60,075 nucleotides of DNA from Minisyncoccota bacterium (GCA_009991965.1 JAACWQ010000007.1:1-60075), one strand, 5' to 3'; positions 1 through 54,768 are shown, numbered from the stretch's first letter. Notes: a model not told the origin generated them from the letters alone. Translations and numbers: made by a program.

Positions 1-2520
1 AACACCACTATAGTTGGCAGCGCAGATTTTGTCGGTGGCACCAGTACTGGCACCCTCACCTTCTCTGGGGTCACAACTGACATAACTACGGGCACCAACC
101 AACACCTCGCGCTCATGCCAAATGGCACTGGCAACGTCGGCATCGGGACGACGGGGCCCTTTACCAACCTACAGATAGTTGGCAGAATGAATGTTGGAAC
201 GACCACCCAGTCTTCGTTTGCACATGCCAACTCTAAATTACAGATTCTTAGTGCTGGAGCCAGTGAAGCTTCGATTGGATTTTGGGAAAGTGGTCAAGCA
301 GCCGCTTTAATTGGTCACGCAGCATCAAGCTCAAATTTTTATATCACAAACACATATGCTGGTGACGCTATTGGAACCGCTGCAAAATCCATCACTCTCG
401 ATCAAAACGGCAACGTCGGCATTGGGACGACGGAGCCGAGTACAAAACTAGAAATTGTTGAGGGAAACGGAACAACTGTTTATCAAGAAGGCACTATTGA
501 TGTAACAAGAACCGTTAGTGGATATAGCGTTAACCCAGTGGGTATGAGGGCTACTGTCTCAGGCGCTGCGACTTATGAAGGCCATGGAGTATTCGGTGTT
601 GCAAGTGTTGAGGGAACCAACTATGGTGTTTATGGACTAGCTCAAGGAACCTCAACTAATTATGGAGTGTATTGTTTGGCACAATCGGGCACCACTAATC
701 GCTGTGGAGGAAATCAAGTGTGGACAAATACTTCTGACGCAAGAGTAAAACGCAACATCACAAAAATAACAAACGCTCTCGACAAAGTTACTAGCTTGCG
801 TGGAGTCAGTTTTTACCGCACCGATGACGGCTCAACAAACTTGCAAATTGGCTTTATAGCCCAAGAAGTCTTGCCCATTGTTCCAGAGGTAGTTCACTAC
901 GATCTAAGAGCCGATCTATACTCAATGGATTATGCATCTTTAACAGCACTGCTCACCAACGCCATTCAAGAACAGCAAGTCCTGATCGCCACCCTCGCCA
1001 CCAACGGCGAGCTCTCCTTCTCTTCCACCGGAGAAGTCCTCATCGCGGGGCAACTAGATAATTATCAAGTCACTGCTGGCATCGACGATTCGCTCGTTAC
1101 CAAAATCGCAGTTCTCGCAGAATCCGCGATTGGCAAACTCCGCGCTGGCCTTATCACCACCCAAGACCTCGTTGTCACCAAATCTGCCATTATTGCCGAT
1201 CTCTCGGTCACTACTCTAAGAATAGGTGAACAATCCATCCAAACCTATGTTGAGCAAATCGTAGCCACTGCTCTACAAAACAATTCACAAACACTCCCCG
1301 CCCAAACACTCGTCAGTCCTGTGGCCAATCTCGATTCGATTACTACCCAAACTGCAACTGTTTCTGGTAGCACCACTACGCAATCGCTCACTGTCTCGGG
1401 CGAAACCAAACTTGGTGCCTTGGTCGCCCAAGAAATTACCACCCCTACCCTCGTGGCCAGCCAGATCGAAGCCACCTCAGCGCGGATTGCCGCACTCGAG
1501 GTCGGTATGGCGCAACTCGAGTCGGTCCGCGCCCAGACTGCCGAGATCGTTGATGCCACTATCTCTGGTACGCTCTACGCCAACAACATTTACGGCTTTG
1601 AGGAAAAACTAGCTACCAGTCTGAGAGAACCGACTCTCCTCGAGACACTCCTTGGCCAACAAACAGCTGCCCCAGGCAGTGCTGACGCGATTGCAGCGGC
1701 AGAACTCGCTGGCTTCCAAGCCACCCCATCGGCTGCGCTCCAAGCGACACTAGCAGAGCTGCAACTCAGCGAGGGTGATGTTGTCCTCTCGAGCGCTGCG
1801 CTGTTTGTCGACCAATACTTCTCTGTCAACGGCACCGGCTACATTGCAGACTCCCTCGGCATTGGCAACAAACTCTATGTTGGTGACGGCCTCGAGTTCT
1901 CTGATGGCATGATTGCGTATAACCCAACCGGAGTTGAGCACCCTACTCTCTACATCCAGCCATCTGGTATGGGTTCCATCTCGCTGCTTGCTGGTCTGAT
2001 GACGTTGTCCGATGATGGGACAGTCGCGATCAACGGAGACTTAAACGTCGCCGGCACCCTCAAGACCGATACTCTACTCTCCAACTTGTTGCAACCAGCC
2101 GACTTTGGCAATCCATTCCAAGTGCAAGTGGCTGGTATCTCGACAGAATCTGGCCAGGTCAAGCAGTCGCGCTTTGAGATTATCAATGAGCTTGGTACGC
2201 CAGTGGCGACCATCTCCGCCCAAGGCAAGGCAGATTTTGCTGGCGGCATTGGGGTTGGCAGCGATACCCAAGTAGCAACTGGTAGCAGCGAAATAAATAC
2301 CGACAAAACTTCTGGTAAGGCCACGATCGCAGCTGGCACCAGCGAGCTTGTCATCCACTCTACCGTCCTGAGCGAGGACAGCCTGATCTACGTCACTCCG
2401 GGTGGCAGTACGGGAAATAAAGTTCTCTACGTCAAGAGCCAGCAAGCAGATCAATTTGTGGTTGGATTTGACAGCGCGACAACAAGCAACGTGTCATTCA
2501 ATTGGTGGGTGGTAAATTAA
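1..2520 (+). CDS. Fibre-like surface protein, 5' end outside the window, with an internal peptidase-S74 intramolecular-chaperone domain
   Basis: Frame 1 is open from nt 1 (NTTIVGSADFVGG...HLAL precedes the first Met at 115), so the gene starts upstream. It has repeated GNVGIGTT(G/E)P motifs. An S74-type segment, SDARVKRNI...LRGVSFYR...IGFIAQEV..PEVV...LLTNAIQEQQ, is present. Stop TAA at 2518-2520. Confidence 0.75.
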   Translation, partial: NTTIVGSADFVGGTSTGTLTFSGVTTDITTGTNQHLALMPNGTGNVGIGTTGPFTNLQIVGRMNVGTTTQSSFAHANSKLQILSAGASEASIGFWESGQAAALIGHAASSSNFYITNTYAGDAIGTAAKSITLDQNGNVGIGTTEPSTKLEIVEGNGTTVYQEGTIDVTRTVSGYSVNPVGMRATVSGAATYEGHGVFGVASVEGTNYGVYGLAQGTSTNYGVYCLAQSGTTNRCGGNQVWTNTSDARVKRNITKITNALDKVTSLRGVSFYRTDDGSTNLQIGFIAQEVLPIVPEVVHYDLRADLYSMDYASLTALLTNAIQEQQVLIATLATNGELSFSSTGEVLIAGQLDNYQVTAGIDDSLVTKIAVLAESAIGKLRAGLITTQDLVVTKSAIIADLSVTTLRIGEQSIQTYVEQIVATALQNNSQTLPAQTLVSPVANLDSITTQTATVSGSTTTQSLTVSGETKLGALVAQEITTPTLVASQIEATSARIAALEVGMAQLESVRAQTAEIVDATISGTLYANNIYGFEEKLATSLREPTLLETLLGQQTAAPGSADAIAAAELAGFQATPSAALQATLAELQLSEGDVVLSSAALFVDQYFSVNGTGYIADSLGIGNKLYVGDGLEFSDGMIAYNPTGVEHPTLYIQPSGMGSISLLAGLMTLSDDGTVAINGDLNVAGTLKTDTLLSNLLQPADFGNPFQVQVAGISTESGQVKQSRFEIINELGTPVATISAQGKADFAGGIGVGSDTQVATGSSEINTDKTSGKATIAAGTSELVIHSTVLSEDSLIYVTPGGSTGNKVLYVKSQQADQFVVGFDSATTSNVSFNWWVVN
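733..993 (+). other. Peptidase-S74 (tail-spike/endosialidase intramolecular chaperone) domain segment inside the fibre-like CDS
   Basis: The codon at 733 is the Ser of the T-S-D-A-R-V-K motif. About 87 aa match the S74 consensus as I recall it (SD.r.K.nI......l..L..v.f......-GfiAQev..v.Pe.v...). Confidence 0.7.
2482..2520 (+). repeat. Gene-end repeat copy A (the functional 3' end of the fibre-like gene, TSNVSFNWWVVN*)
   Basis: acaagcaacgtgtcattcaattggtgggtggtaaattaa. Homologous to copies at 2894-2935 and 4227-4268. Confidence 0.85.
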
Positions 2521-2528
2521 ATACCACA

Positions 2529-2557
2529 TTGACATTGTATATACAATGCAATATTAT
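2529..2557 (+). promoter_or_regulatory. Sigma70-like promoter (TTGACA-17-TATTAT) with a 16-bp perfect palindrome in the spacer
   Basis: TTGACA at 2529-2534, TATTAT at 2552-2557. The palindrome CATTGTATATACAATG at 2533-2548 is its own reverse complement. It sits 6 nt upstream of the GTG start of the RHH gene, so it is a plausible autoregulatory operator. Confidence 0.5.
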
Positions 2558-2563
2558 TAGTTC

Positions 2564-2839
2564 GTGAAGCAAATCGATTGGAGCGAGGAGAAAAAAATAC
2601 TACAAGACTTTGATAGCGGATTATTACAATCTGTTCCCAATCTTAAATCAGAAAGCAAACGCTACGCCAGTTATGCAAAGGCAACACTCGCCAAAAAGAA
2701 AACTATTTCTTTCAGAATTTCAGAGCCGGTACTCAACGAGCTTAAGTCGCGTGCCGAAGAAGCGGGATTGCCCTATCAAACGTTACTCTCAACCCTCATT
2801 CATCAGTTTACCAGCAGAAAAATTGCTCTTAAATTGTAA
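2564..2839 (+). CDS. Ribbon-helix-helix CopG/BrnA-type antitoxin-like protein, with no adjacent toxin gene
   Basis: The C-terminal KKTISFRISEPVLNELKSRAEEAGLPYQTLLSTLIHQFTSRKI matches the CopG-antitoxin/BrnA pattern (isiRl...l..lk..A...GipYQtLi...lh.y). GTG start; an in-frame stop lies just upstream at 2558. Confidence 0.7.
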   Translation: MKQIDWSEEKKILQDFDSGLLQSVPNLKSESKRYASYAKATLAKKKTISFRISEPVLNELKSRAEEAGLPYQTLLSTLIHQFTSRKIALKL

Positions 2840-2893
2840 TGTTGTTCCCGAATTTTTAACTTGACACATTAAATATTCGGTATATGTACCAGA

Positions 2894-2935
2894 ACAAATG
2901 TCGCTGTGCCGTTCAACTGGTGGGTGGTGAATTGA
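2894..2935 (+). repeat. Gene-end repeat copy B (translates TNVAVPFNWWVVN* in its own frame)
   Basis: acaaatgtcgctgtgccgttcaactggtgggtggtgaattga. Conserved with copy A at both nucleotide and peptide level, including a terminal stop. Not part of any long ORF in that frame. Confidence 0.85.
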
Positions 2936-2960
2936 CAGAGAGCAATTCTTGCAATATAAT
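2932..2960 (+). promoter_or_regulatory. Perfect consensus sigma70 promoter (TTGACA-17-TATAAT), 7 nt upstream of the ATPase-1 ATG
   Basis: TTGACA at 2932-2937 straddles the end of repeat copy B (aatTGA|CA). TATAAT at 2955-2960, ATG at 2968. The geometry implies a leaderless or near-leaderless mRNA. Confidence 0.6.
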
Positions 2961-2967
2961 TCACAGT

Positions 2968-4221
2968 ATGAATAAAAGTTATTCACAAGATGAATTATAT
3001 TACTCTCGCTGGCTCACAGAACATCTCAAAGACGCGCTGGAAACCCATGCGGTCATTGTCCTCACCGGCGCGCGGCAAGTAGGCAAAAGCACTCTTTTGC
3101 GCAACGAGGAACCGTTCCGTTCCTGGCGTTACCACACCTTCGACGATCTCGAAACTTTGGAGCAAGCGCGAACCAACCCAACCAGCCTCTGGGCCGGAAC
3201 AGAAAACATCGTACTCGATGAGGTGCAGCGAGCACCAGAAGTACTCTTGGCTGTCAAACAAGCTATAGACACTCATCCGAAGAAGTACCGCTTTGTGCTT
3301 TCCGGTTCAGCAAACTTACTGCTCATGCAGCAGGTCAGCGAGAGCCTGGCGGGGCGCGCCGTCTACTTTGTCTTGCACCCGCTCACCTTGGGTGAACAGC
3401 ATCGACAGCCTCCCCCCCCTTTGCTGACAGACCTTCTGAGCGCCCAGTGGCCCAGTGAGTCGCTGGTTGCTACACAGCCCCCAGAGCCAGGTAGCTTTCT
3501 CCTGCGCGGAGCAATGCCCGGGTTGGTGGCTCTCACGGCACCGGCAGCCTGGTTGCGCTGGTGGGAAGGCTATATCCTCACGTATCTTGAGCGAGACCTC
3601 AGACAGATTGCCCAAATCGATGCCCTGCTTGACTATCGCCGATTGATGGAACTCTTGGCCTTACATACTGGCCAGTTACTCAATCAATCTGAGATAGGCC
3701 GCGATGCTGGCCTCACACAACCGACCGCCCATCGCTACATCAATCTACTGGAAACCACACACCTTCTGGAGCGCCTTGCTCCCTATACTGCGGGTCGTAT
3801 CCAGCGACTAGTGAAATCGTCCAAAGTATTCTGGACAGATCCTGCCTTGCCAGTCTTTTTGTCTGGTTATTTCGATGAAGAGAGTCTCAGAACTTCTCGT
3901 GAATTTGGATCATTTTTTGAAGCACTTGTGTACCAACATCTGCGGGTATTGTCCGAGTTGATGGTGCCCAAAGCCCGTCTCTACTTCTGGCGCACCCGCA
4001 CGGGGCAAGAGGTAGATTTTGTTGTAGAACAGGGAAAAAAACTTTTGGCTATCGAAGTCAAATTGACCAAAAATCCTCACTACCAAGATACCGCAGGACT
4101 GCGCTCCTTTCTGGAAACACATAAAAGCGCACAAGGTGGTGTTTTGCTCCACGCAGGCAAAGAGATCCGGTACTTGGACGAGCGCATTATCGCCATACCG
4201 TGGACGCTGATAACTGGCTAA
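2968..4221 (+). CDS. AAA ATPase (AAA_14 type) fused to a DUF4143 / PD-(D/E)xK-like domain, paralogue 1
   Basis: Walker A LTGARQVGKSTLL, Walker B IVLDEVQ, C-terminal nuclease-like motif EVDFVVEQGKKLLAIEVK. I use Met29 of the tracked ORF (2884) because the upstream part is repeat copy B read in another frame and the consensus promoter sits at 2932-2960. Confidence 0.85.
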   Translation: MNKSYSQDELYYSRWLTEHLKDALETHAVIVLTGARQVGKSTLLRNEEPFRSWRYHTFDDLETLEQARTNPTSLWAGTENIVLDEVQRAPEVLLAVKQAIDTHPKKYRFVLSGSANLLLMQQVSESLAGRAVYFVLHPLTLGEQHRQPPPPLLTDLLSAQWPSESLVATQPPEPGSFLLRGAMPGLVALTAPAAWLRWWEGYILTYLERDLRQIAQIDALLDYRRLMELLALHTGQLLNQSEIGRDAGLTQPTAHRYINLLETTHLLERLAPYTAGRIQRLVKSSKVFWTDPALPVFLSGYFDEESLRTSREFGSFFEALVYQHLRVLSELMVPKARLYFWRTRTGQEVDFVVEQGKKLLAIEVKLTKNPHYQDTAGLRSFLETHKSAQGGVLLHAGKEIRYLDERIIAIPWTLITG

Positions 4222-4226
4222 ATACT

Positions 4227-4268
4227 ACTAACATTGCTGTACCGTTCAACTAGTGGGTGGTAAATTAA
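4227..4268 (+). repeat. Gene-end repeat copy C (decayed: TNIAVPFN*WVVN*)
   Basis: actaacattgctgtaccgttcaactagtgggtggtaaattaa. By-eye identity to copy B is ~80%. It carries an internal TAG where copies A and B have TGG. Confidence 0.85.
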
Positions 4269-4274
4269 CTAATT

Positions 4275-4325
4275 TTGTCGCAATTTATATAAATTGAGAC
4301 ATTTCATTGTCGCAATTTTATAAAA
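4275..4325 (+). repeat. Two direct copies of TTGTCGCAATTT + AT-rich tail, 32 bp apart, in the ATPase-2 upstream region
   Basis: ttgtcgcaatttatataaa at 4275-4293 and ttgtcgcaattttataaaa at 4307-4325. A possible promoter is TTGTCG(4307)-18-TACAAT(4331-4336). A GAAGG RBS precedes the ATG at 4358. Confidence 0.5.
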
Positions 4326-4357
4326 TGTGTTACAATATCACAAAGAAAGAAGGCAGT

Positions 4358-5488
4358 ATGATCGACCGAGTTCTTGAAAAGGACATTGAACAGTATCTCT
4401 TTCGCGGGCGCGTTATCACAATTTACGGCGCACGTAGAGTTGGCAAAACAACACTCGTCAAGAAAGTTCTGCAAAATCACCCGGACAAGCGCACCCGCTA
4501 CCTCAACTGTGACCTACAATCAGTGCAGACTGCACTCAGTATCAAAGAAGCCAAACCGCTCAAGTCTTACTTAGGTGAATATGATCTGGTTGTGCTAGAC
4601 GAAGCCCAAAATATCCCTGATGTGGGCAAAATACTAAAAATACTGGTGGACACGTACCCACAGATGCAAATTATCGCTACAGGCTCTTCCTCATTTGATC
4701 TAGCAAATAGTACTGGCGAGCCACTCACTGGGCGCGCCTATCCCCTGCGACTCTATCCTGTTTCTTTACAGGAGTTAGCAGGCAAAAGTGGTTACAGTAT
4801 CATCGAGCCACAACTGAATAACTTCCTACGCTTTGGTCTCTACCCAAGTATTATTGACCTCTCAGAACGAGACGCTCAGATCCAACTGCAGGAGTTGGTT
4901 TCAAGCTATCTTTATCGAGATGTGCTTGCATACATCGGCGTCAAACGCTCCAAAATGGTAAGCGACCTCTTACGACTCTTGGCGCTCCAAGTTGGTAATG
5001 AAGTATCCTACCCAGAACTGGGAACAATCTTAGGTCTAGATCGCAGAACAGTTCTCTCCTACATTGACATTCTAGAACAATCATTTGTTGTCTTTACCTT
5101 GAGTGGCTTCAGTCGTAACCTGAGAAAAGAAGTCAGTAAAACCCAAAAAATTTATTTCTATGACATGGGAGTTCGCAATGCTCTTTTGCAGGCTTTTGCG
5201 CCCCTCTCCCTGCGCAACGACGTGGGCGCACTCTGGGAAAACTTCTGTATTGTAGAGCGCCTCAAAAAAGCCAACAACACCGGACTTACCAATAATCGCT
5301 ACTTCTGGCGCACCTATGACAAGAAGGAAATCGACTACATCGAGGAGCGTGATGGGATTCTCTCTGGTTTCGAGTTCAAGTGGAATCCAAAGCGCAGCAT
5401 GAGGGTACCCAAGGAATTCCTGGATACCTACCCAGGCAGTACTGTCGAGCAAGTAGATAGAGGTAACTACTGGCGTCATCTACTCTAG
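4358..5488 (+). CDS. AAA ATPase (AAA_14) + DUF4143 / PD-(D/E)xK-like domain, paralogue 2
   Basis: Walker A IYGARRVGKTTLV, Walker B VVLDEAQ, C-terminal EIDYIEERDGILSGFEFK. Start moved to Met18 (MIDRVLEK), which has a GAAGG RBS 5 nt upstream. Confidence 0.85.
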   Translation: MIDRVLEKDIEQYLFRGRVITIYGARRVGKTTLVKKVLQNHPDKRTRYLNCDLQSVQTALSIKEAKPLKSYLGEYDLVVLDEAQNIPDVGKILKILVDTYPQMQIIATGSSSFDLANSTGEPLTGRAYPLRLYPVSLQELAGKSGYSIIEPQLNNFLRFGLYPSIIDLSERDAQIQLQELVSSYLYRDVLAYIGVKRSKMVSDLLRLLALQVGNEVSYPELGTILGLDRRTVLSYIDILEQSFVVFTLSGFSRNLRKEVSKTQKIYFYDMGVRNALLQAFAPLSLRNDVGALWENFCIVERLKKANNTGLTNNRYFWRTYDKKEIDYIEERDGILSGFEFKWNPKRSMRVPKEFLDTYPGSTVEQVDRGNYWRHLL

Positions 5489-5517
5489 TAGATAGACAAA
5501 AAACGGGCAACTTGACA

Positions 5518-6153
5518 CTATTTCACAATGCACACATTATTATGTGCAAATGGAATCATATAATAACGCTCAAGTGCCTCAACTCTTCTTTGGAGAGATT
5601 TTGAGAAAGCCTGGGCATAGCTTAGTAGTTTCTCTGTACTAATACCTACCAAAGACCACTCGCCTACTTCTGAGTATGCCAAGCCCCTATCTACAAGATA
5701 GAGCTGATCAATGATGGCCTTCTCTGGCTCTGCTAAGGCACCCAGTGGGGTTTGTGTGTAGCCAAAATAATACTTTTGGTCAAGTTGGCGAAATTGTACT
5801 TCTTGATCGCCGAGAAGTAGTTTCTTTGATCTCTTGGTCGTGGCAAAGGTGAGAGCGTATGGTTGCTGACTCAAAATACCGTGGCGGGCTAGTGCTGATT
5901 CGAAAGAGAGATATGACGGATAATACATTTGGTTGGCCACATGCTCGAGTTGAGCTGTTTGTGATTTAGTTTGAAATATTCCCCTAGAGAGACGTACTAG
6001 TGCGCCCCTCTTTACCAGGCGGTGGATAGAAACGGTCAGACTTTTTCTGGAACGATTAAAGATTTTTTCCAAATCTGCCATTGTAAAGTACGCCTGAGAA
6101 ACCTTCTCAAGTTCTTGAATAAATTGGTAATCGCTTATTCTTATGGTAGCCAT
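5518..6153 (-). CDS. abiEi: AbiEi-family antitoxin / transcriptional regulator (type IV TA)
   Basis: N-terminal wHTH-like FTMADLEKIFNRSRKSLTVSIHRLVKRGALVRLSRGIF, followed by PSYLSFESALARHGILSQQPYALTFATTKR, typical of AbiEi. Overlaps the upstream AbiEii gene by 13 nt. Confidence 0.8.
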   Translation of the reverse strand: MATIRISDYQFIQELEKVSQAYFTMADLEKIFNRSRKSLTVSIHRLVKRGALVRLSRGIFQTKSQTAQLEHVANQMYYPSYLSFESALARHGILSQQPYALTFATTKRSKKLLLGDQEVQFRQLDQKYYFGYTQTPLGALAEPEKAIIDQLYLVDRGLAYSEVGEWSLVGISTEKLLSYAQAFSKSLQRRVEALERYYMIPFAHNNVCIVK

Positions 6154-6692
6154 GATTCCAAGATTTTCCTTTCACTCTCTGGTAGGAATTTATGCATTTC
6201 TCTTTCTATACGCTCAAGTGTTGCAACCTGGGCTAGGACAGTGAGTGAGGTCACGCGACTGTTGAGTACGACCAATTCAAAATCGTCTCCCCTCTTCCAC
6301 TGCCCATCAATGCGACGAGTCGATGCCTCAAACTTGATTGAAAAGTTTTGCACCAAAAATGACTCTTTGACCTGAATCCTGACAAAATAAGTGTTTTGCT
6401 TTTGAATACATTCTGTAATGGTAATGGTATCGTATTCGTGCTCTATCGATCTCAGCACTCGGTCACACGACTCTTTGTCAAAATCACCAATCATGGAGAA
6501 ATCGAGATCCTCTGAAAAACGTGGGCAGCCATATGCCAACCGCAGTGCTGTGCCACCCTTGAACACAAATGAGCTGCCTATCTCGCTCTCAAACAACCTT
6601 TTCAAAACAATCATTTCATACTCCTCGCGCACGATTTGTTCTAAGGGGATACGAAGAGTTTTTTGCAGTTGGTCAGCTACTTGCTTGTTCAT
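6141..6692 (-). CDS. abiEii: AbiEii/AbiGii-family nucleotidyltransferase toxin (short, 183 aa)
   Basis: The FVFKGGTALRLAYGCPRFSEDLDFS motif (GGT ... EDLDF) is the AbiEii nucleotidyltransferase signature. Confidence 0.8.
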   Translation of the reverse strand: MNKQVADQLQKTLRIPLEQIVREEYEMIVLKRLFESEIGSSFVFKGGTALRLAYGCPRFSEDLDFSMIGDFDKESCDRVLRSIEHEYDTITITECIQKQNTYFVRIQVKESFLVQNFSIKFEASTRRIDGQWKRGDDFELVVLNSRVTSLTVLAQVATLERIEREMHKFLPESERKILESWLP

Positions 6693-6773
6693 AGTAAAAC
6701 CCTGTTTTTGTTAACTTCGATTGAACTATTATGACTCAAATCGTTTTTTTAGCAAGGGGCCCATTTTGGTTAC

Positions 6774-6802
6774 TTTACAAAAAACACCATAAGTTGTATA
6801 GT
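6774..6802 (+). promoter_or_regulatory. Sigma70-like promoter (TTTACA-17-TATAGT), 6 nt upstream of the ATPase-3 ATG
   Basis: TTTACA at 6774-6779, TATAGT at 6797-6802, ATG at 6809. Leaderless geometry. Confidence 0.5.
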
Positions 6803-6808
6803 ATTACT

Positions 6809-7996
6809 ATGCAAAAAAGACACATTTGGAAAAAATTGCTGCCAGAGATATCTACCAAAGAAATCTTAGTTATTACCGGACCACGACAGGTCGGGAAAAC
6901 CACCACCCTGCTATGGTTACTAGAACAGATCAAGGATACAAATAAAATATATCTTGACTTAGAAAACCTAGCAGATAGAGAACTATTTGAGATTAAGGAC
7001 TACAACACAGTCATCTCAGAACTCGAAAGTCGAGGCCTCACGACTGACCGAAAAATGTATATTGCACTCGATGAAATACAACTCCTACCCAACCTCCCGA
7101 GCATAGTCAAGTATTTATATGATCACTACAACATAAAATTTTTTCTCTCCGGATCAAGCTCATATTATATAAAGAATAGATTTACAGAATCGATGGCTGG
7201 CAGAAAAATTGTGTACGAGATGTTTCCGCTTTCATTCCAAGAGTTTTTGGATTTCAAAGACGTTGAGTATAAAATTGATACAAATATTTTTGAGAAAAAC
7301 TCATTTTCAGAACCTGCCTATCAAAAACTGTACATCCATTACCAAGAGTTTGTGGAGTTTGGCGGACTACCCCAGGTAGTACTTACCTCTAGCGTAGGGA
7401 GAAAACAACAACTACTCGAAGAAATTTTTAGCTCGTATATCAATATAGATGTCAACTCTATGGCAGATTTTAAATCAACCAAGGACCTAAGAAACGTCAT
7501 CAAGCTTCTGGCTACTCGTATTGGCAATAAACTAAATATCTCAGAAATAGGCAATATTGCTGGACTAAGCAGAATCACTGTAGAAAATTATATTGAATTT
7601 TTAGAGCAAACATATCTCATTTCTACTGTGTCTGTTTTTTCAACTTCAGAAGATGTCAAAACGCGCTTGCAAAAAAAGCTCTATTTTGTAGACACGGGAA
7701 TTGCCAACATCAATGCGGACCTATCTAGTGGCAGTAAATTTGAAAATACTATCCGACACCAATTACAGTTCTTGGGAAAAATTCAGTACTTTTCCGATAG
7801 GAATGGGGAAATTGACTTTATTCTAGATGATGGTTCAAAAAAAATAGCACTTGAGGTTAAAGAGACTCCAACAAAAACTGACTACACAACACTAACAAAG
7901 CGGGCAGCAAAGCTCCGGATACCTACTATCAGTGTCATTGGGCGTCAGCCTTCAGCAAATTTTACAAATTTTTTGTGGGGTGGATCAATTAGATAG
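6809..7996 (+). CDS. AAA ATPase (AAA_14) + DUF4143 / PD-(D/E)xK-like domain, paralogue 3 (AT-rich)
   Basis: Walker A ITGPRQVGKTTTL, Walker B IALDEIQ, C-terminal EIDFILDDGSKKIALEVK. Start moved to MQKRHIWKK (Met27 of the tracked ORF) on promoter geometry and alignment with the paralogues. Confidence 0.85.
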   Translation: MQKRHIWKKLLPEISTKEILVITGPRQVGKTTTLLWLLEQIKDTNKIYLDLENLADRELFEIKDYNTVISELESRGLTTDRKMYIALDEIQLLPNLPSIVKYLYDHYNIKFFLSGSSSYYIKNRFTESMAGRKIVYEMFPLSFQEFLDFKDVEYKIDTNIFEKNSFSEPAYQKLYIHYQEFVEFGGLPQVVLTSSVGRKQQLLEEIFSSYINIDVNSMADFKSTKDLRNVIKLLATRIGNKLNISEIGNIAGLSRITVENYIEFLEQTYLISTVSVFSTSEDVKTRLQKKLYFVDTGIANINADLSSGSKFENTIRHQLQFLGKIQYFSDRNGEIDFILDDGSKKIALEVKETPTKTDYTTLTKRAAKLRIPTISVIGRQPSANFTNFLWGGSIR

Positions 7997-7999
7997 AAG

Positions 8000-8407
8000 T
8001 TACCGCCCGCAAACGTAGTACACATTTGCAACTACTCCATCGCACTTTGCTCGGGATTCTGTAATATCTGGGTCGTCAGTGTTGTTGAGCAAAACGTACA
8101 GATTGTAGGAATCCTCACTATTCTGAATATATACAGCGTCTGCGGGTGTATCAGTTGAGTATGTTCCATTTGTGAACTCATCATGTGAAGAAAGGTCAGC
8201 TGGATACGCCTGATGATCATTATAATACAGGCGCAACGCCGACTGAAAGTCCTTGAGATCCGCCTTCTTGCGCGCATCGGCAGCTCGGCCACGAATACCC
8301 ACTAAATTAGGTAATAAAATAGCAGTCAAAACTGCAATAATTGAGATCACAACGAGTAATTCAATGAGCGTAAAGGCCCTTAGATAACGAATATTTCTAG
8401 AATGCAT
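8000..8407 (-). CDS. Type IV pilin-like / pseudopilin protein
   Basis: N-terminal class III signal RAFTLIELLVVISIIAVLTAILLPNL (prepilin cleavage/methylation motif). Confidence 0.8.
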   Translation of the reverse strand: MHSRNIRYLRAFTLIELLVVISIIAVLTAILLPNLVGIRGRAADARKKADLKDFQSALRLYYNDHQAYPADLSSHDEFTNGTYSTDTPADAVYIQNSEDSYNLYVLLNNTDDPDITESRAKCDGVVANVYYVCGR

Positions 8408-8945
8408 CTTCTTCTCCTACCCCAGTAACAGTTGGTGCTGGGGAGTTAGTGCTTGTAATAGCAAAATTACACTTTACCCCATCTGCACAAACTGAACCTC
8501 CATACTCCCCTGGAGCGCCCTCGCTTGTTTTGGCCGCTTGCAGATCATTAGAGTTCTCAAGCCTTGCATACAAAACATAGCGCGATCCATCACTATAATA
8601 GTAGTAATTATAGGCAGTTTTATCAATTGGTAGCGTTGCCATATAAATCGTAGTACCAGTTTTCCATTCACTTCCCCACTCACAAGCAGCAGCAGCGCAA
8701 CCCACAATCTTACCTGCAGCACTTACTGGATAAGCAGCATTGTCGTTATAGTACGTCTCCAGAGCAACTGCGATATTCTTGAGATCAGTTTTTCTCCGAG
8801 AATCTCGTGATTTTGTCTGACTGGAGGCAAAAGCACCAAGACCAATTGTCGCCAAAATACCAAGAATCGCAATCACGACCAACAGCTCCATGAGCGTGAA
8901 TCCACGGGAGAAAAATGAATGTTTTGACGACACAATATTCATCAT
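8397..8945 (-). CDS. Type IV pilin-like protein
   Basis: SRGFTLMELLVVIAILGILATIGLGAF prepilin N-terminus. Followed by the same ...DSRRKTDLKNIAVALETYYND helix pattern seen in its neighbours. Confidence 0.8.
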   Translation of the reverse strand: MMNIVSSKHSFFSRGFTLMELLVVIAILGILATIGLGAFASSQTKSRDSRRKTDLKNIAVALETYYNDNAAYPVSAAGKIVGCAAAACEWGSEWKTGTTIYMATLPIDKTAYNYYYYSDGSRYVLYARLENSNDLQAAKTSEGAPGEYGGSVCADGVKCNFAITSTNSPAPTVTGVGEEDAF

Positions 8946-8950
8946 ATACC

Positions 8951-9634
8951 TTAGTTATAACAATTAGCTATACATGCGCCTTGTGAGTTCGCGCCGTGAT
9001 AGTCTCTGTTGCATGTATTTGGGAAACCATTAATTATTTCTGTGCAAGACTGATTACTCAGCACACAGCACCAATCAAGTCCTGGTCCTGGCTCACCACC
9101 ACCTTCAGCGCCACCTTCGCCTTCGGCAACGCCACCTAACCCAAGAACCAAACCCTCGAGTGAAACTGCCGCTCCTTGTGCAACCCCGTAATCATAGATA
9201 ACCTCACCATCCACAATTCCACAGCCATTCTCGCCACCACAGTTGATCGCTATGCTAGCGTCGCTATGGTCTCGCTCCAGATCGGTAAGTATTCTATAGC
9301 CGAGTACTGGACAGGCAGGAGCGTCTCCGCCAAGCACACTATATAAATAAGGACCTTTCGTGAGCGGATCGCAGGGTACACTGCCTATATAGTCGTCCAA
9401 AATGGTGCTGCCTCCCCCACCGCAGTACAGCTCGAGTGTATCTGTGGGGGGATAACACGAGTGATCATTATAGTAATCCTCAAATACCACTTTCAGTTTG
9501 CTCAAGTCGCTGAGCCGCTTGCTATCTCTTCCCCGAGAGATCTGGGGAGCCATAAAAAAGTAACCCGCGATCAGTAGGAGGCCCAAGATAGCCACTATGA
9601 TAAGCACCTCAATCAGTGAAAAACCCTTTCTCAT
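8951..9634 (-). CDS. Type IV pilin-like protein with a Gly/Glu-rich linker and a Cys-rich C-terminal module
   Basis: MRKGFSLIEVLIIVAILGLLLIAGYF prepilin N-terminus. C-terminus ...GGAEGGGEPGPGLDWCCVLSNQSCTEIINGFPNTCNRDYHGANSQGACIANCYN. Confidence 0.8.
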   Translation of the reverse strand: MRKGFSLIEVLIIVAILGLLLIAGYFFMAPQISRGRDSKRLSDLSKLKVVFEDYYNDHSCYPPTDTLELYCGGGGSTILDDYIGSVPCDPLTKGPYLYSVLGGDAPACPVLGYRILTDLERDHSDASIAINCGGENGCGIVDGEVIYDYGVAQGAAVSLEGLVLGLGGVAEGEGGAEGGGEPGPGLDWCCVLSNQSCTEIINGFPNTCNRDYHGANSQGACIANCYN

Positions 9635-9700
9635 ATATGCACCAGTGTATCATTTTTCGGTCTGGCTTGCCTGTTTACAAAGCTGTTCATTCTTGCTTAA

Positions 9701-11773
9701 ATGAGACTCGCTAAAAGGAAAGAAAAAATGCAGCAATCAGACATGATTTCAAAAATAACACTCGGTGTTTTTGCTGTAGCGCTCGTCATCTTAGTCATTG
9801 GACTTTTTCCATTTACCGACAACTTCGTTTTCCAGAGTAAAACATACTTTCTGTTTGGTTTTACTGGTCTTATCGGTCTACTTTTTGCAGTAAGATCGAT
9901 GCGCAAACAAGCCATCTCAATTCTCTGGTCACCACTTTCGCTGCCAATTTTGTTGTTTGGCACCAGCATGCTCGCCTCGAGCTTACTCACCAACTCGTAT
10001 CCTCAAGAAAGCCTGCTCACCATGGGTGGCGTATTTATCGCTGGTAGTATCATTGCGCTTCTTGGTGGAACCATCCTGCCAAAAACCGCTGGCTCTGTGC
10101 TCCTCAAGACAATTGCTGTTGCAGGCGTACTCCTGACTGCAAGCACCGCCCTCCAATTGCTTGGATTTGGTCCAAGCAAACTACTCGAACCAATCTTTGG
10201 TCTAGCTTTGCCACACACGGTAGATTTCAACCTGACTGGCTCATCTTTCGTTGCTTTACAGGTGCTGTTGGTTGCAGCTGTTGGACTCGTAGCAACCATA
10301 CTACAAAACAAACACATTTCAAAGTTTTCTGCGGTGGTGCTGCCAATCCTTATCATTGGCATTGCGCTGCACGGCTGGACATTACTGCCCGGCAAACCAA
10401 GCGCACTCCTCTTACCTTCGCTCAAAGCCAGCTGGTCGGTTGCACTCGATACTATTCGTGAGCCTCGTGCTGCTCTTATCGGTGTCGGTCCTGCTGCGTA
10501 TGGCAATGTCTACCTCAAGTTTAAACCACTTTGGGTCAATACAACACCAAGCTGGAATCTTCAATTCTCTCAGGCTGCAAACGTACCACTGTATATGCTC
10601 ACAATTGGTGGTTTCATCGGTCTTGGTTCTTGGTTGTTTTTACTCGTCCGAATGTTCGCCGTAAACAAACAAAGTCGCAAAGATTCTCGTGCCGTGATTC
10701 TTACAGCACTTGTTTGTGGTCTGCTCCAATTCTTTGTGCCAACAAACGTAGTTCTCATTGGCCTGCAGTTCATATTGCTGACTGCATTTCTAGCAGGTGA
10801 GGCCGATCGATACACCCTGTTTAATCTCAAGGCCCCTTCGCTTTCCATTACCAGCGAAAATGGACAAAATGTAGAGACTTCCAAGGCAGTGGCTCCCATC
10901 TACCTCATGGCGTTGGTCGTTGCCGTTGGGTTTGGCGCGCTCCTCTTTTTCGTCGGCAAAGCCTATGCTGCAGAGCTTGCAATCCACCAGGGAACACTCG
11001 CTGCACAAAACAACGATGGTCTTGCGGTCTACAGCAATCATCAAAAAGCGGTGACTTTAAATCCCTACCTCGATGATTTGCGCAGACAATATGCGCTTAC
11101 CAATATGCTGATTGCAGCCGCGCTATCAAACAAAACAGATGCAACAGAAGAGGAAAAAACCCAAGTTGGAGAACTGATGCAACAGGCGGTACGGGAAGCG
11201 CAATCTGCCACCACTCTCGACCCAACTGACGCACAAAACTGGGGAGTACTTGCACAAATTTATCAAAACATGATTGGTATCTCCGATCAAGCAAGTGAGT
11301 TTGCGATCCAATCCTACATTACAACGATTGAGAACGATCCAACCAATCCTACGCTGCGCATCAGCTTAGGTGGATTATTTCTCAACGGAGAAAAGTTTGA
11401 GCAGGCAGCTACACTCTTTCAACAGGCAACAGAGCTGAAACCAGATATGCCAAACGGCCACTATAACTTGGCTGTTGCGCTTATCAAGCTCAATCAGCTT
11501 GAGGCTGCCAGAACTTCTTATCAACAAGTGCTAGCGCTCCTTGACCCAGCCTCAGAAGATTACACTACGGTAAATACAGAGCTTGAGAAGCTTGAGACTG
11601 CGCTGGCAGAACAAGCAAAACAACAAGGAGAACAAGCACCAGCTGAAGGACAAGATCCAAATGCACCAAGTATTACCGACCAAAATGTGTCTCGTGCTGG
11701 ACAAAGCTTATCGCAACCATCTGGAGATGACGTACAGTTTCCAGCAGGAGCTGATTTAGCCCCCGCTCAATAG
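9701..11773 (+). CDS. Polytopic membrane protein, O-antigen-ligase (Wzy_C)-like, with C-terminal TPR repeats
   Basis: About 430 aa contain ~10 or more hydrophobic helices and a loop, ALIGVGPAAYGNVY...ANVPLYMLTIGGFIGL, that resembles the O-antigen ligase loop. The C-terminal ~200 aa are TPR-like (AQNWGVLAQIYQNMI..., PNGHYNLAVALIKLNQLEAA). The start may instead be Met10 (9728). Confidence 0.55.
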   Translation: MRLAKRKEKMQQSDMISKITLGVFAVALVILVIGLFPFTDNFVFQSKTYFLFGFTGLIGLLFAVRSMRKQAISILWSPLSLPILLFGTSMLASSLLTNSYPQESLLTMGGVFIAGSIIALLGGTILPKTAGSVLLKTIAVAGVLLTASTALQLLGFGPSKLLEPIFGLALPHTVDFNLTGSSFVALQVLLVAAVGLVATILQNKHISKFSAVVLPILIIGIALHGWTLLPGKPSALLLPSLKASWSVALDTIREPRAALIGVGPAAYGNVYLKFKPLWVNTTPSWNLQFSQAANVPLYMLTIGGFIGLGSWLFLLVRMFAVNKQSRKDSRAVILTALVCGLLQFFVPTNVVLIGLQFILLTAFLAGEADRYTLFNLKAPSLSITSENGQNVETSKAVAPIYLMALVVAVGFGALLFFVGKAYAAELAIHQGTLAAQNNDGLAVYSNHQKAVTLNPYLDDLRRQYALTNMLIAAALSNKTDATEEEKTQVGELMQQAVREAQSATTLDPTDAQNWGVLAQIYQNMIGISDQASEFAIQSYITTIENDPTNPTLRISLGGLFLNGEKFEQAATLFQQATELKPDMPNGHYNLAVALIKLNQLEAARTSYQQVLALLDPASEDYTTVNTELEKLETALAEQAKQQGEQAPAEGQDPNAPSITDQNVSRAGQSLSQPSGDDVQFPAGADLAPAQ

Positions 11774-12964
11774 ACGCAAACACGTATTGTGGAGTAACTC
11801 CAAGTTATCGTGCGTTGCGGCACTGACCAACACTGGTGTAATGTCTGCGAACGTTTCTTTCTCAAGTAAGCTAAGCAATTCTTCCGAGTATAAGTCAGTT
11901 TTCGCGATACAAACTGCAGTCTCTATATCCAACAATGTTTTGTCATACGCAAGTAATTCATTACGTACGATCGAAAATTGCTCGTGCAGAGCTGTAATTT
12001 GCTCTGAAACAGGGGTCGTCAGTAGCTCGTCGGCTACTGAAAGCACATAGATAAGACCGCGGCAATGGCGGACATGACGCAAGAACGAAAGACCGAGGCC
12101 TCTGCCCTCACTCGCCCCAGAGATTAAGCCGGGAATATCTGCCACCACGCACTCTTGAGAACGATCTTCACTCACCAACATACCAAGCTGTGGCTCGAGG
12201 GTGGTAAATGGATACGCTCCAATGGCTGGTGTCGCCTGAGTAAGTACAGACAAAAGCGTGCTCTTGCCCACATTTGGCAAACCAATCAATCCAACATCTG
12301 CCAGCAATTGTTGCTCGAGAATCACCCAACGATCTTCACCAGGCGTACCATACTCGGCGCGCAGCGGCGTCGTCTCACGAGAACTTTTGAACAACTGATT
12401 TCCTCGACCGCCAAATCCGCCCTGACAAATAATCACTTCTTGGCCAGGTTCACTCAGGGTCGCAACCAATTTGTAGCCCGAAGATGCGAGATCCAAATTG
12501 GCCAACACTTTTGTTGTGAGGTTGTTTGGTTCCTCTGCTGCATCTTGGAGAGCTGGAGGGATTGGCGCTCCTTCTTTCTCGAGCAAAAACTGTGATCTTT
12601 CGACCAATTTGCTCGGAATTTTTTTTTCTAATCCTATGGAAAGACGCCGTTTCTGAGCTGGAGTATTTTCACTCACTTGCCAAACGCAGGTACCGACTGG
12701 CACCGAGACCACGACGTTTTCTGCTGCAGCTCCAGTACAATTTTTTGCACCACCTGCTTTGCCTGGCTCTGCCGAGATTGCATTGAGGCCAGAGTAACGC
12801 TTGAGGGTGCTTTGGCCGGCGTCAGCCCGCAAAATAATTGAGCCACCATTGCCTCCGGTGCCACCATCTGGTCCACCCTTGAGAATATACTTGGATCGAT
12901 GAAATGAGACGCGCCCTATGCCGCCTGAGCCTGCCTGTAGTTGAAGTGCAACAATATCAATCAT
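11756..12964 (-). CDS. obg: GTPase Obg/CgtA
   Basis: Obg fold (GSGGIGRVSFHRSKYILKGGPDGGTGGNGGSIIL) followed by a G domain (GLIGLPNVGKSTLLS, DIPGLI). Contains a ~60-aa insertion inside the Obg fold. Confidence 0.9.
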   Translation of the reverse strand: MIDIVALQLQAGSGGIGRVSFHRSKYILKGGPDGGTGGNGGSIILRADAGQSTLKRYSGLNAISAEPGKAGGAKNCTGAAAENVVVSVPVGTCVWQVSENTPAQKRRLSIGLEKKIPSKLVERSQFLLEKEGAPIPPALQDAAEEPNNLTTKVLANLDLASSGYKLVATLSEPGQEVIICQGGFGGRGNQLFKSSRETTPLRAEYGTPGEDRWVILEQQLLADVGLIGLPNVGKSTLLSVLTQATPAIGAYPFTTLEPQLGMLVSEDRSQECVVADIPGLISGASEGRGLGLSFLRHVRHCRGLIYVLSVADELLTTPVSEQITALHEQFSIVRNELLAYDKTLLDIETAVCIAKTDLYSEELLSLLEKETFADITPVLVSAATHDNLELLHNTCLRLLSGG

Positions 12965-12978
12965 GCGCGCATTGTACC

Positions 12979-14085
12979 TTACCTGAGAGAACTCTGTGGA
13001 TTTAGGAGCACACCACCCTGTCTGATCTCAAAATGGAGATGTGTGCCTGTCGAGCGACCAGTATTTCCCATTTGCCCTATGACGTCTCCTCTGTTGACGC
13101 GTTGACCTGGTTGAACCTGGATTACAGATAAATGGGCGTAGAGTGTTTGTGAGCCGTTGCCATGATCCACCATGATTCGATTGCCGTAACCGAAACCATC
13201 GAGCCAACCTGCCTGTGTCACAACACCAGAGTCTGCTGCCACAATTGGACCGCCAGAACCGTTCGCAATATCAATTGCCTTGTGATAGAAACTGTAGCTC
13301 TGTGTGATTCTGCCAGCAGCTGGCCAAACAAAGGAGCCAAATGCGGTGACCGAACCAGCGTCTGGTGTCAAACGAGCTGTGGTTGTTTGACGAATACCAG
13401 TGCTCGAAACTGCAACCCTGACACCATTTGGCACAACCAAAAACTGCCCTGTGGCGAGCTCAAACGTTTCGTCATTCAGGAAATCATTAAAGGGATAGTC
13501 AACCAACACCTGGACTTCTGAGCCCTCGAGACCATACTTTTTTCCAATTGAGTAAATTGTTTCACCTCGAGCCACTTTGTGCCGTATGCCATCGACGGGT
13601 AAAATACGCAATTCCTGGCCAGGCTGCAACTTACTTTTCTCGGTCAAGTCGTTTTCCCACAACAAAGTATTTACTTGGAGGCCATAGCGTTCGGCAATAC
13701 TAGAAAGCGTCTCTCCCTCTACTACAGAGTGCAAAAGCACCTCGCCGCCACGAAACTGACGCACTTCTTCAGCCTGCTGCGTATAAAAACTTGTACTATA
13801 GCCACCACCATTGAGCACTCCAGATTCAGTTTGGAGTTCTTCGCCCTGATCTGCATATGAGATGACCTTCGGCCCAATGATAATCGTAAAAAAAATCAGG
13901 CCGACCGTGCCGACGTGTAAAAATGGGCGGACGTATCGACCGCGTTTTTTATACAACGCGTCAACTAGCGTACTCTTTACAACTTCAAAATGGGTAAATA
14001 ATCGATAGCCACGAAACCTGATATACGCCCGCAATGAGTAAAAAAACGGTAAAAACTCTCTAGTGATGCTCATGTTCGCTCGCAT
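12979..14085 (-). CDS. Membrane-anchored LysM (x2) + M23 family metallopeptidase
   Basis: LysM segments (VVEGETLSSIAERYGLQVNTLLWEN and VARGETIYSIGKKYGL). M23 motifs (HKAIDIA, GNTGRSTGTHLHFEIRQGG). Confidence 0.85.
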   Translation of the reverse strand: MRANMSITREFLPFFYSLRAYIRFRGYRLFTHFEVVKSTLVDALYKKRGRYVRPFLHVGTVGLIFFTIIIGPKVISYADQGEELQTESGVLNGGGYSTSFYTQQAEEVRQFRGGEVLLHSVVEGETLSSIAERYGLQVNTLLWENDLTEKSKLQPGQELRILPVDGIRHKVARGETIYSIGKKYGLEGSEVQVLVDYPFNDFLNDETFELATGQFLVVPNGVRVAVSSTGIRQTTTARLTPDAGSVTAFGSFVWPAAGRITQSYSFYHKAIDIANGSGGPIVAADSGVVTQAGWLDGFGYGNRIMVDHGNGSQTLYAHLSVIQVQPGQRVNRGDVIGQMGNTGRSTGTHLHFEIRQGGVLLNPQSSLR

Positions 14086-14101
14086 TCTAACAAAGAAGCG
14101 G

Positions 14102-15307: not shown

Positions 15308-15587
15308 AAAAAAAGTCCTTATAGTTTGAAATTATTTGCCAATCTGTAGAGTCCGAAGGGAATGAATTGTGAGTAGTATGCCAGAAAAATGAGAATCTGT
15401 CAAAAAAACTCTTCAATCCTTAGTGGAAGCTCGGCTGCCTGCCCAACTCGCCGAACCTCCACTGAAAATTGATATAGTTGTAAGTAGAAAGATAGAATTT
15501 ACAAAACTATAGCGATACTGGTATTGTGTTCAAGTTATTGTCTTCGCATTCTTGATTTTATCAAAGGTGAAGACAACGTATGATAAA

Positions 15588-22222: not shown

Positions 22223-22432
22223 ATGCATGAAAATGAACAATCACTCTCGCCAGAAGAAGAAGCTAGATTAAAAGCACTTACTGAAGCTGCCGCTCAAACT
22301 ATTTCTGAAAAACAACTGAAGTCAGGAAGTGCTCGTCTGCTGGCAGCTATCCAAAATGGAGATCCCGACGAAACAGTACCTGTTGAGGAAGATGACAGTG
22401 AGTCATCTGAACCTAAGTCAGAAGCTGAGTAA
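22223..22432 (+). CDS. Small acidic hypothetical protein (69 aa)
   Basis: A GGAGG RBS lies 8 nt upstream of the ATG. Highly acidic C-terminus (VPVEEDDSESSEPKSEAE). No family recognised. Confidence 0.4.
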   Translation: MHENEQSLSPEEEARLKALTEAAAQTISEKQLKSGSARLLAAIQNGDPDETVPVEEDDSESSEPKSEAE

Positions 22433-22449
22433 ACGAGAGGTGCAACTAC

Positions 22450-54064: not shown

Positions 54065-54069
54065 ATTAT
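54050..54069 (+). repeat. Direct repeat, left copy (end of the 53237-54064 gene: ..PIARG*)
   Basis: ATAGCGCGCGGCTAAATTAT. The first 15 nt are identical to 54749-54763. Confidence 0.9.
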
Positions 54070-54114
54070 AGTGTCCAGTTACTTTTTTGACCCTCATTTC
54101 TTTCTATTGACAAA

Positions 54115-54752: not shown

Positions 54753-54768
54753 CGCGCGGCTAATTTAT
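54749..54768 (+). repeat. Direct repeat, right copy (overlaps the higA-like stop codon)
   Basis: ATAGCGCGCGGCTAATTTAT. 19/20 identical to 54050-54069, offset 699 bp. Confidence 0.9.

Follow-up and report, generated by a model that had tools for sequence, protein, structure and literature searches.

The window analysed here is a stretch of 60,075 nucleotides (nt) of DNA from a Minisyncoccota bacterium (GCA_009991965.1, JAACWQ010000007.1:1-60075). Annotation of the 60 kb places dnaA, dnaN, rnpA, yidC, leuS, rho and obg on it, so the window is chromosomal; the closest named relatives are metagenome-assembled genomes (MAGs) labelled Candidatus Pacebacteria and Saccharibacteria, and the window belongs to a bacterium of the Patescibacteria, or candidate phyla radiation (CPR). 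The window opens inside the gene for a giant CPR surface protein, which we call the fibre gene, and between this gene and the convergent type IV pilin genes lies an island of defence and toxin-antitoxin genes (Table 1). The last ~45 nt of the fibre gene occur three times: at the live end of the gene (copy A) and, without coding function, at two places within the island (copies B and C), so that they bracket two small cassettes. We describe this array and its counterparts in related genomes, and we lean towards the view that it grew by serial insertion at the end of the gene.

The three copies were recovered by a repeat finder as a three-member direct family (A 2479-2521, B 2894-2936, C 4227-4269), with start-to-start spacings of 415 nt from A to B and 1,333 nt from B to C. 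A search with the 24-nt core, allowing up to 3 mismatches, found exactly three sites (2497-2520, 2912-2935 and 4245-4268), against a mean of 0.00 sites in 100 dinucleotide-preserving shuffles. The three gene-end copies are far beyond chance. A preliminary description, made from the sequence of the window, had reported three direct copies delimiting two small units and had allowed that their similarity might be no better than chance; copies and units are present where it placed them, and the shuffle test disposes of the caveat.

Table 1. Features of the fibre-gene island and of a second insertion site, in window coordinates.
Feature	Position	Strand	Details
Fibre gene, giant CPR surface protein, 3' part	1-2520	+	839 codons, open to window edge; Peptidase_S74 chaperone domain
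Copy A, live fibre end	2476-2520	+	Allele class ...TTSNVSFNWWVVN then stop; alignment, codon-wise comparison
brnTA promoter	2529-2557	+	TTGACA-17-TATTAT, 11/12 consensus; contains 16-nt palindrome CATTGTATATACAATG at 2533-2548
'RHH gene': first ~10 brnT codons fused in frame to brnA (CopG/BrnA antitoxin)	2564-2839	+	By comparison with the intact L088 pair
Copy B, displaced gene end	2891-2935	+	Allele class xTN[VI]AVPFNWWVVN; stop TGA overlaps ATPase-1 -35 box
ATPase-1 cassette	2931-4221	+	Promoter TTGACA-17-TATAAT at 2932-2960 (12/12); DUF4143/AAA_14 gene, PDC-S01, 2968-4221
Copy C, displaced gene end	4224-4268	+	Allele class as B, internal TAG; starts 0-5 nt past ATPase-1 stop
ATPase-2 cassette	4276-5488	+	26-nt inverted repeat 4276-4301; promoter 4307-4336; DUF4143/PDC-S01 gene 4358-5488
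AbiEi-type scar	5512-5562	+	Promoter and first five codons, as L088 5278-5328; rest deleted
AbiEi/AbiEii cassette	5563-6771	-	Genes 5518-6153 and 6141-6692; 92-95% nt identity to L088/L090 AbiE behind remnant
ATPase-3 cassette	6774-7996	+	Promoter 6774-6802; DUF4143/PDC-S01 gene ending 3 nt before pilin stop; also in L058
Three type IV pilin genes	8000-9634	-	Convergent with fibre gene; conserved right flank of hotspot
Second site, copy 1: last four codons and stop (IARG, stop) of DHH-like gene 53237-54064	54050-54064	+	Repeat search, relatives
Second site: Gp49/HigB-like toxin 54115-54453, HTH antitoxin 54450-54752 and 15-nt duplicate 54749-54763	54065-54763	+

Read in frame, A gives ...TTSNVSFNWWVVN and a stop, B gives ...RTNVAVPFNWWVVN and the stop TGA, and C gives ...TTNIAVPFN, stop, WVVN, stop, in which a TGG has become TAG. 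B and C are 81% identical, A and B 70%. Codon by codon, B (RTNVAVPFNWWVVN) and C resemble the allele that is live in two related loci, L088 and L090 (ITNIDVPFNWWVVN), and A (ATTSNVSFNWWVVN) resembles the live alleles of two others, L104 and L058. On this codon-wise comparison, B and C are another allele class of the same gene end and not decayed copies of A. The increasing decay with distance from the live gene that had been noted earlier comes down to a single stop codon in C, an anecdotal basis, in copies that belong to the other class. An apparent two-codon insertion in B and C relative to A proved to be an alignment artefact; the alleles are equal in length and differ by substitutions. Aligned codon-wise with the L090 live allele, homology sets in at ~2891 for B and at 4224-4227 for C. 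The two left edges fall at the same codon, plus or minus one, and no fibre homology was found upstream of either. The brnA stop is separated from copy B by 47 nt of unmatched sequence (2847-2893), for which no match was found in any locus examined.

The gene end that was copied belongs to a widespread family. The homologues found for the C-terminal ~260 residues of the fibre protein all end in ...FNWW[IV]V[NQ], and the terminus ...FNWWVVN is kept family-wide, as FNWW[IV]VN and a stop, across many CPR phyla; the segment just before FNWW differs between alleles. Scanning GTDB species genomes with a back-translated C-terminal pattern yielded at least 80 loci, and among the matches listed nearly all were the stop-proximal end of a very large open reading frame (ORF) in a Patescibacteria MAG. 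Several motif matches came from MAGs labelled Gammaproteobacteria or Pseudomonadales; these bear the same CPR-type fibre-pilin synteny, and the labels are probably wrong. A PDB sequence search with the fibre C-terminal domain found no relative. Dozens of CPR loci share one gene order, with the fibre gene followed by pil1-pil2-pil3 on the opposite strand and then a TPR protein, and the convergent gap between fibre and pilin genes is usually 27-300 nt. In the window this gap measures 5,476 nt (2521-7996) and reaches within 3 nt of the pilin stop codon. Extra copies of the gene end were present in only three lineages among >80 homologous loci: that of the window, that of L088/L090, and L033. L033 is an unrelated Patescibacteria MAG in which the gene's last 36 nt and a 38-nt spacer are triplicated in perfect tandem (247-418, minus strand), with a 74-nt period and no cassette between the copies. 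Sliding-window identity of the live fibre gene against L058, L104, L061 and L090 showed no abrupt shift near the 3' end, and we set aside recent mosaicism in it.

Related loci hold the same junction in several states of filling. In L061 (PFDI01000001), whose fibre C-terminal domain has 83% protein identity to that of the window, the fibre and pilin stops lie 27 nt apart, which makes this the empty site. L058 (90% protein identity in the same domain) has the order fibre, BrnT'/BrnA, a truncated copy B (CTGGTGGGTGGTGAATTAA), a Fic protein, ATPase-3 and pilins, and L104 has fibre followed by BrnTA. In the distant CPR genomes L048 and L073, AbiE and DUF4143 cassettes stand at the same position without remnants. 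Because empty, intermediate and differently filled sites occur in relatives, the fibre-pilin gap is a recurrent hotspot for defence and toxin-antitoxin cassettes.

L088 and L090 present the arrangement in reverse. Their live end, ITNIDVPFNWWVVN and a stop, is followed by an AbiEi/AbiEii cassette, and 3 nt past the stop of that cassette begins a remnant of 55-70 nt whose first 25 nt are identical to the live gene of the window (51/55 overall). In L090 the remnant takes in the conserved flank on each side, QFxVGFD and FNWWVVN. The AbiE pair behind the remnant shares 92-95% nt identity with that of the window, against only ~66-78% nt for the flanking core genes. Since the class of B and C is live in L088/L090 and these loci carry a remnant of the window's class, the comparison indicates that the two allele classes of the fibre end are joined by exchange between lineages in both directions.

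The cassette between B and C has a distant origin. The best homologues of ATPase-1 (82-89% protein identity) lie on GC-rich, Chloroflexota-like contigs, the closest named ones in Caldilineaceae and Anaerolineae MAGs, and its GC content is 0.54-0.62 compared with ~0.40-0.46 in its neighbours (genome ~0.45). At the DNA level it is 82-83% identical to L106 (5983-7252), L108 (2512-3779) and L109 (189-1479), and this homology spans exactly window 2931-4221, beginning at the -35 box and ending with the stop codon. On the left, the junction falls within the stop codon of B, where the remnant reads ...GTGAATTAAC and the donor ...CGATTGACAG, a 5-of-6 microhomology that pairs AATTAAC with GATTGAC; the right junction is the gene's own stop codon, with C beginning 0-5 nt later. 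These alignments mark ATPase-1 as a foreign promoter-to-stop fragment joined at microhomology in the B stop codon, and because the foreign homology bounds it exactly there is no room for att arms borne by an element. In L058 the truncated B is still followed by ~14 nt of the ATPase-1 promoter (TTAACAGAAGCAGC), so B and ATPase-1 were already joined before the window lineage and L058 parted. Judged by its homologues, the gene may have been transferred into a CPR bacterium from another phylum, possibly from a host. The donor-like contigs are themselves defence islands, with a Fic gene, an AbiE pair and an ATPase-2-like gene (65% protein identity).

A signature of the same kind occurs at a second place in the window. 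The sequence ATAGCGCGCGGCTAA stands at 54050-54064, the end of a DHH-like gene, and again at 54749-54763, where the duplicate supplies the stop codon of the HTH antitoxin of a HigBA cassette. An exact repeat of 15 nt is not significant alone, as 6 of 30 shuffles reached that length. Relatives of the DHH-like gene, however, all end in ...SM[SP][IV]ARG, and in L110 (4001-4883), from the MAG that also has the empty fibre site L061, the gene is followed 18 nt on by a convergent gene of 1,435 residues. Because the repeat sits at the end of the upstream gene and L110 provides the empty site, we take the duplication to be real. In L113 (389-1815), a BrnT-like and CopG cassette occupies the same position without a duplication. 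Judged by these loci, cassettes have a second hotspot where the DHH-like gene meets a convergent SLT-domain gene of ~1,430 residues. Because some cassettes at such hotspots lack it, duplication of a gene end is an occasional by-product of insertion and not an obligatory signature. A scan of 842 ORF ends, from CPR loci that total ~700 kb, for duplicated ends including the stop codon gave two genuine cases, those of the fibre and DHH genes; the other hits were internal repeats of collagen-like or repeat-rich genes. A TacA/TacT pair upstream of the DHH-like gene is kept in L110 and also in L111, and none was seen upstream in L113. In several respects, then, the preliminary description has held up: insertion at the 3' end of the gene agrees with the empty L061 and the intermediate array in L058, the empty sites it had suggested seeking in related genomes are there (in L061 the fibre gene converges directly on the pilin operon), its non-coding copies fit displaced former, or foreign, ends of the gene given the reciprocal arrangement in the sister lineage L088/L090, and its similar signature at 54050-54768 is real and of the same kind, empty in L110 and with a duplicated end in the window.

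The same description had likened the array to an integron or att site without its machinery, and here its suggestions divide. No integrase or transposase was found in the 60-kb window, as it had stated of the neighbourhood, or in any cassette. Its comparison with an integron or att site fared worse. Folding the three copies with their flanks, on both strands, gave z-scores of -0.54 to +0.71 against shuffled controls and no shared hairpin, which answers in the negative its proposal that the repeat might fold like attC. The cassettes bear their own sigma-70-like promoters (12/12 at 2932-2960, 11/12 at 2529-2557). An att core would be near-identical, constant in extent and present at every unit; A and B are 70% identical, B and C 81%, and the remnants measure 15, ~20, ~45, ~45 and 55-70 nt, differing by event. 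Repeat-free cassettes at the same hotspots elsewhere, and the exact bounds of ATPase-1, point the same way. The gene-end motif had no match in IMG/VR viral contigs, the repeats lack dyad symmetry, and inspection of the junctions, with no dedicated scan run, revealed no terminal inverted repeats at the ends of ATPase-1. Three further candidates were rejected. The core CTGGTGG matches E. coli Chi at 7/8 positions; the heptamer is unskewed (8 on the plus strand, 8 on the minus), and its ~2.8-fold excess is close to the ~2-fold excess of TGGTGG, which fits codon usage. A diversity-generating retroelement is disfavoured by the window annotation, in which no reverse transcriptase appears and the only RVT_3 match falls on an RNase H gene, and by differences between A and B/C that are not adenine-specific. 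For a transposon or casposon with target-site duplication, no such gene is present in the window, and the duplication lengths vary.

We hold with moderate confidence that the array arose by serial insertion with displacement of the gene end, through homologous and illegitimate recombination in a hypervariable defence and toxin-antitoxin island. Whenever DNA came in, it would insert at the very end of the fibre gene, and the formerly live end, or a fragment of the donor's end, would be left downstream as a short non-coding remnant. ATPase-1 would have arrived first, leaving C, and the BrnTA cassette with a type-1 gene end (the class of A) later, leaving B. We infer that general recombination after DNA uptake could bring this about without dedicated site-specific machinery, either by single-crossover integration of small circles carrying a cassette and ~45 nt of gene end or by homology-anchored illegitimate recombination of linear DNA. 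For the window, we envisage two successive integrations, into a type-1 chromosome, of circles carrying a cassette and ~45 nt of type-2 end (the class of B and C), which would explain the shared class and left edge of B and C, the difference of A, and the position of the newest cassette beside the live gene. The first capture of ATPase-1 from another phylum would have to be illegitimate, in keeping with the microhomology found on its left side. For L088/L090 a better fit would be a contiguous imported block of linear DNA starting inside the donor fibre gene, either anchored or doubly illegitimate. RecA-type recombination has minimal homology requirements, and on that basis recombination with the live gene would be expected to remove the cassette wherever a remnant exceeded ~70 nt, so that the surviving remnants would be biased towards short ones. 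Saccharibacteria can be transformed naturally, with homologous recombination carrying the DNA they take up into the genome, and the com genes are shared widely among CPR phyla (PMC10633639).

Several points weigh against serial insertion by general recombination. Neither circular intermediates nor recombinant junctions nor polymorphism within the population were seen, and three assemblies of the clone are 100% identical; the homology available for crossover is only ~24-45 nt and diverged. Whichever variant of the model is taken, the arrangement in L088/L090 needs two steps or more. The inspection for recombinases covers 60 kb of this genome only, the organism is uncultured, and competence is assumed from relatives. 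A shared left edge, as in B and C, would be predicted by a fixed site or by one duplication event, and for independent illegitimate junctions it is only a ~1-in-10 coincidence. One such event would be duplication of the target site at capture, through a staggered break or a template switch at microhomologies, with the live copy diverging later by allelic exchange of the fibre gene. B and C, of the same class and length, do flank a gene of another phylum that could not have brought its own fibre end; there is microhomology at the left junction of ATPase-1, the HigBA duplicate is an exact 15 nt, and the spontaneous tandem triplication in L033 has a 74-nt unit composed of gene end and spacer. We nevertheless judge this unlikely: A and B, like the live end and the remnant of L090, belong to different classes, which would demand an extra allele replacement each time, the remnant of L090 and its adjacent AbiE are both window-like and resemble one imported block, and a later, independent junction would have had to fall at the left edge of B as well. 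A fixed site, in turn, would make the ~45-nt gene end an att site at which integrase-less or trans-mobilised mini-elements (CIME-like or IMEX-like) were accreted through a recombinase whose gene lies elsewhere in the genome. Elements that integrate at the 3' ends of protein-coding or tRNA genes are well known, as is their accretion in tandem, and three tandem direct repeats lie exactly at a gene 3' end here, B and C share a left edge and an allele class, and a perfect 15-nt repeat flanks the HigBA cassette. Such a site is nonetheless distinctly unlikely, given that neither the 60 kb nor any cassette encodes a recombinase, that the remnants range from 15 to ~70 nt and the presumed core is not the same in A as in B and C, that cassettes at the same hotspots in other genomes are repeat-free, that no viral contig carries the motif and no dyad symmetry or fold was found, and that homology to a foreign chromosome stops exactly at both bounds of ATPase-1.

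Two further explanations concern the remnants themselves. They might be functional, either as silent mini-cassettes for gene conversion of the tip before FNWWVVN or as regulatory or insulator elements between cassettes. The pre-FNWW segment varies between alleles, the L090 remnant spans the QFxVGFD and FNWWVVN flanks, and B provides part of the -35 context of ATPase-1; B and C, however, lack the left conserved flank that gene conversion needs, C has a stop codon, and the remnants are absent from nearly all homologous loci and have no predicted structure, which makes a function very improbable. Least of all do we credit the possibility that the copies are the last remains of tandem fibre paralogues destroyed by deletions, which the preliminary description had named as a refuting case and for which longer homology should extend upstream of B and C. 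The locus is deletion-prone, as seen in the brnT deletions, the truncated B of L058 and the scar at 5512-5562, but no tandem paralogues were seen (the surveyed syntenic loci have pilin genes or cassettes after the fibre gene), what lies just before C is a foreign ATPase gene with its native end intact, and there is no fibre homology upstream of B or C.

Serial insertion with gene-end displacement has parallels in known systems: the array behaves like an Rhs/CdiA orphan array in logic and like a defence-island hotspot in content; its likeness to an integron or integrative-element array is superficial and fails the defining tests. Integrative elements, and CIMEs that lack an integrase, can accrete in tandem at the 3' ends of protein-coding or tRNA genes, as in the ICESt1 family at fda. 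There, as here, direct repeats of the gene 3' end bound successive inserts, the gene stays intact and inserts can be integrase-less; in the window, by contrast, no recombinase or element backbone was found, repeat lengths and allele classes vary, and the units are single promoter-to-stop units of 0.4-1.3 kb. With integron arrays it shares small cassettes, often toxin-antitoxin, stacked in one orientation at one site, but it has no attC hairpins, intI, attI or Pc, its cassettes have their own promoters, and one of them is inverted. The pdif (XerC/D) modules of Acinetobacter plasmids are likewise small, recombinase-less, frequently brnTA or higBA, and bounded by short repeated sites; pdif sites, however, are 28 nt long, dyad-symmetric and alternate in orientation, whereas the copies here are direct, asymmetric fragments of coding sequence. 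As in defence-island hotspots, the same intergenic position holds differing contents in relatives (AbiE, PDC-S01 ATPases, Fic, toxin-antitoxin), with conserved flanks, variable content and enrichment in defence and toxin-antitoxin genes; the gene-end scars and the packing from -35 box to stop are particular to the window locus. A close analogy is C-terminal displacement in Rhs and CdiA, whose orphan arrays (PMC2935791; Poole et al. 2011, PMC3150448) likewise consist of an intact gene followed by dissociated fragments of the same clade. In the published Rhs model the fragments retain a conserved core of variable length, and small circles are excised and integrated by single crossover (PMC2935791, Jackson et al. 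2009). Incoming DNA pushes the old end downstream in both cases, that model too relies on homologous recombination and involves no dedicated recombinase, and the classes of the remnants here are live in sister lineages. The differences are that the C-terminus here is conserved and not a polymorphic toxin tip, that only 14-23 codons are displaced, and that the cargo consists of independent promoter-bearing defence and toxin-antitoxin cassettes, one gene coming from another phylum, and not of toxin-tip and immunity pairs.

How accessory and defence genes are gained in the small, streamlined genomes of CPR/Patescibacteria is poorly understood. The locus offers a record of such gain at nucleotide resolution, with an empty site, intermediate arrays, exact junctions and reciprocal exchange of gene ends. 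By this record, building an integron-like cassette array may take no more than general recombination at the conserved end of a gene, plausibly following transformation. It would extend the Rhs pattern of C-terminal displacement to a non-toxin gene with defence cargo, and short non-coding copies of a gene's last codons could be a searchable marker for such hotspots. More speculatively, and at long odds, conserved 3' gene ends in CPR could be reusable landing pads for promoter-to-stop defence cassettes that are captured, stacked and exchanged as small circles with ~45 nt of gene end, some of them from other phyla (a Chloroflexota neighbour or host), in effect an integron that lacks an integrase or uses an unrecognised recombinase.

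The rest of the island has the same compact build. Its order is the CopG/BrnA antitoxin gene, two DUF4143/AAA_14 ATPase genes, AbiEi/AbiEii on the other strand and a third ATPase gene, followed by the pilins; each of the three ATPases matches PDC-S01, a candidate defence family of PADLOC, and the assignment of AbiE was confirmed. In L058 as in the window, the packing of ATPase-3 is from -35 box to stop codon, and AbiE keeps the same two boundaries in the window and L088 despite different neighbours. The toxin part of brnT is deleted in the window, whereas L088 (3129-3775) keeps an intact BrnT and BrnA, and L058 (4169-4555, minus strand) has a different, independent internal deletion of brnT; the comparison points firmly to two losses of the toxin with the antitoxin kept. 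Because of these deletions, the truncated B of L058 and the 51-nt AbiEi-type scar (5512-5562), we consider the locus prone to deletion. The convergent minus-strand AbiEi gene reads through the scar (5518-5570) and thereby gains a 17-residue tail unlike its 97%-identical L088 orthologue. The window AbiEii (6141-6692, minus strand) has 183 residues and lacks a 41-residue internal segment of its L088 orthologue (224 residues), which may have inactivated the toxin. The perfect 16-nt palindrome CATTGTATATACAATG in the brnTA promoter is kept with the cassette in L058, L088 and L104. Upstream of ATPase-2 lie a repeated TTGTCGCAATTT motif (4312-4324) and the 26-nt inverted repeat (4276-4301), and a similar TTGTCGGG repeat stands upstream of the Fic gene of L058 (~4090-4135, minus strand). 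The palindrome and both sets of upstream repeats are likely operators.

The clone itself was assembled several times. L002 and L007 are 100% identical to the window over 11-15 kb (window 1-15500) and show no population polymorphism at the locus; the three identical assemblies come from different sources (ENA ERZ27293386, Logan SRR6053076 and JGI 3300004210). Contigs of JGI 3300008255 and 3300025150 carry the same genes as the window in a comparison of gene content only. The longer clone assemblies that reach the region, L001/L006 and L007, start within ~80 nt of one another inside the fibre gene, and L002 starts 1.5 kb further into the region. Two short contigs from other samples, L004 and L005, stop at the same base inside copy B (...GTTCAACTGGTGG); this endpoint, which we did not count as evidence, could reflect strain mixtures sharing a 29-nt identical stretch with B or a real polymorphism. 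Elsewhere in the window, the longest exact direct repeat is the 17-nt TCAGAAGCTGAGTAAAC at 19504-19520 and 22418-22434, 2,914 nt apart. Its first copy lies within an SBP_bac gene on the other strand and its second includes the stop codon of a 69-residue ORF, and the repeat may be due to chance.

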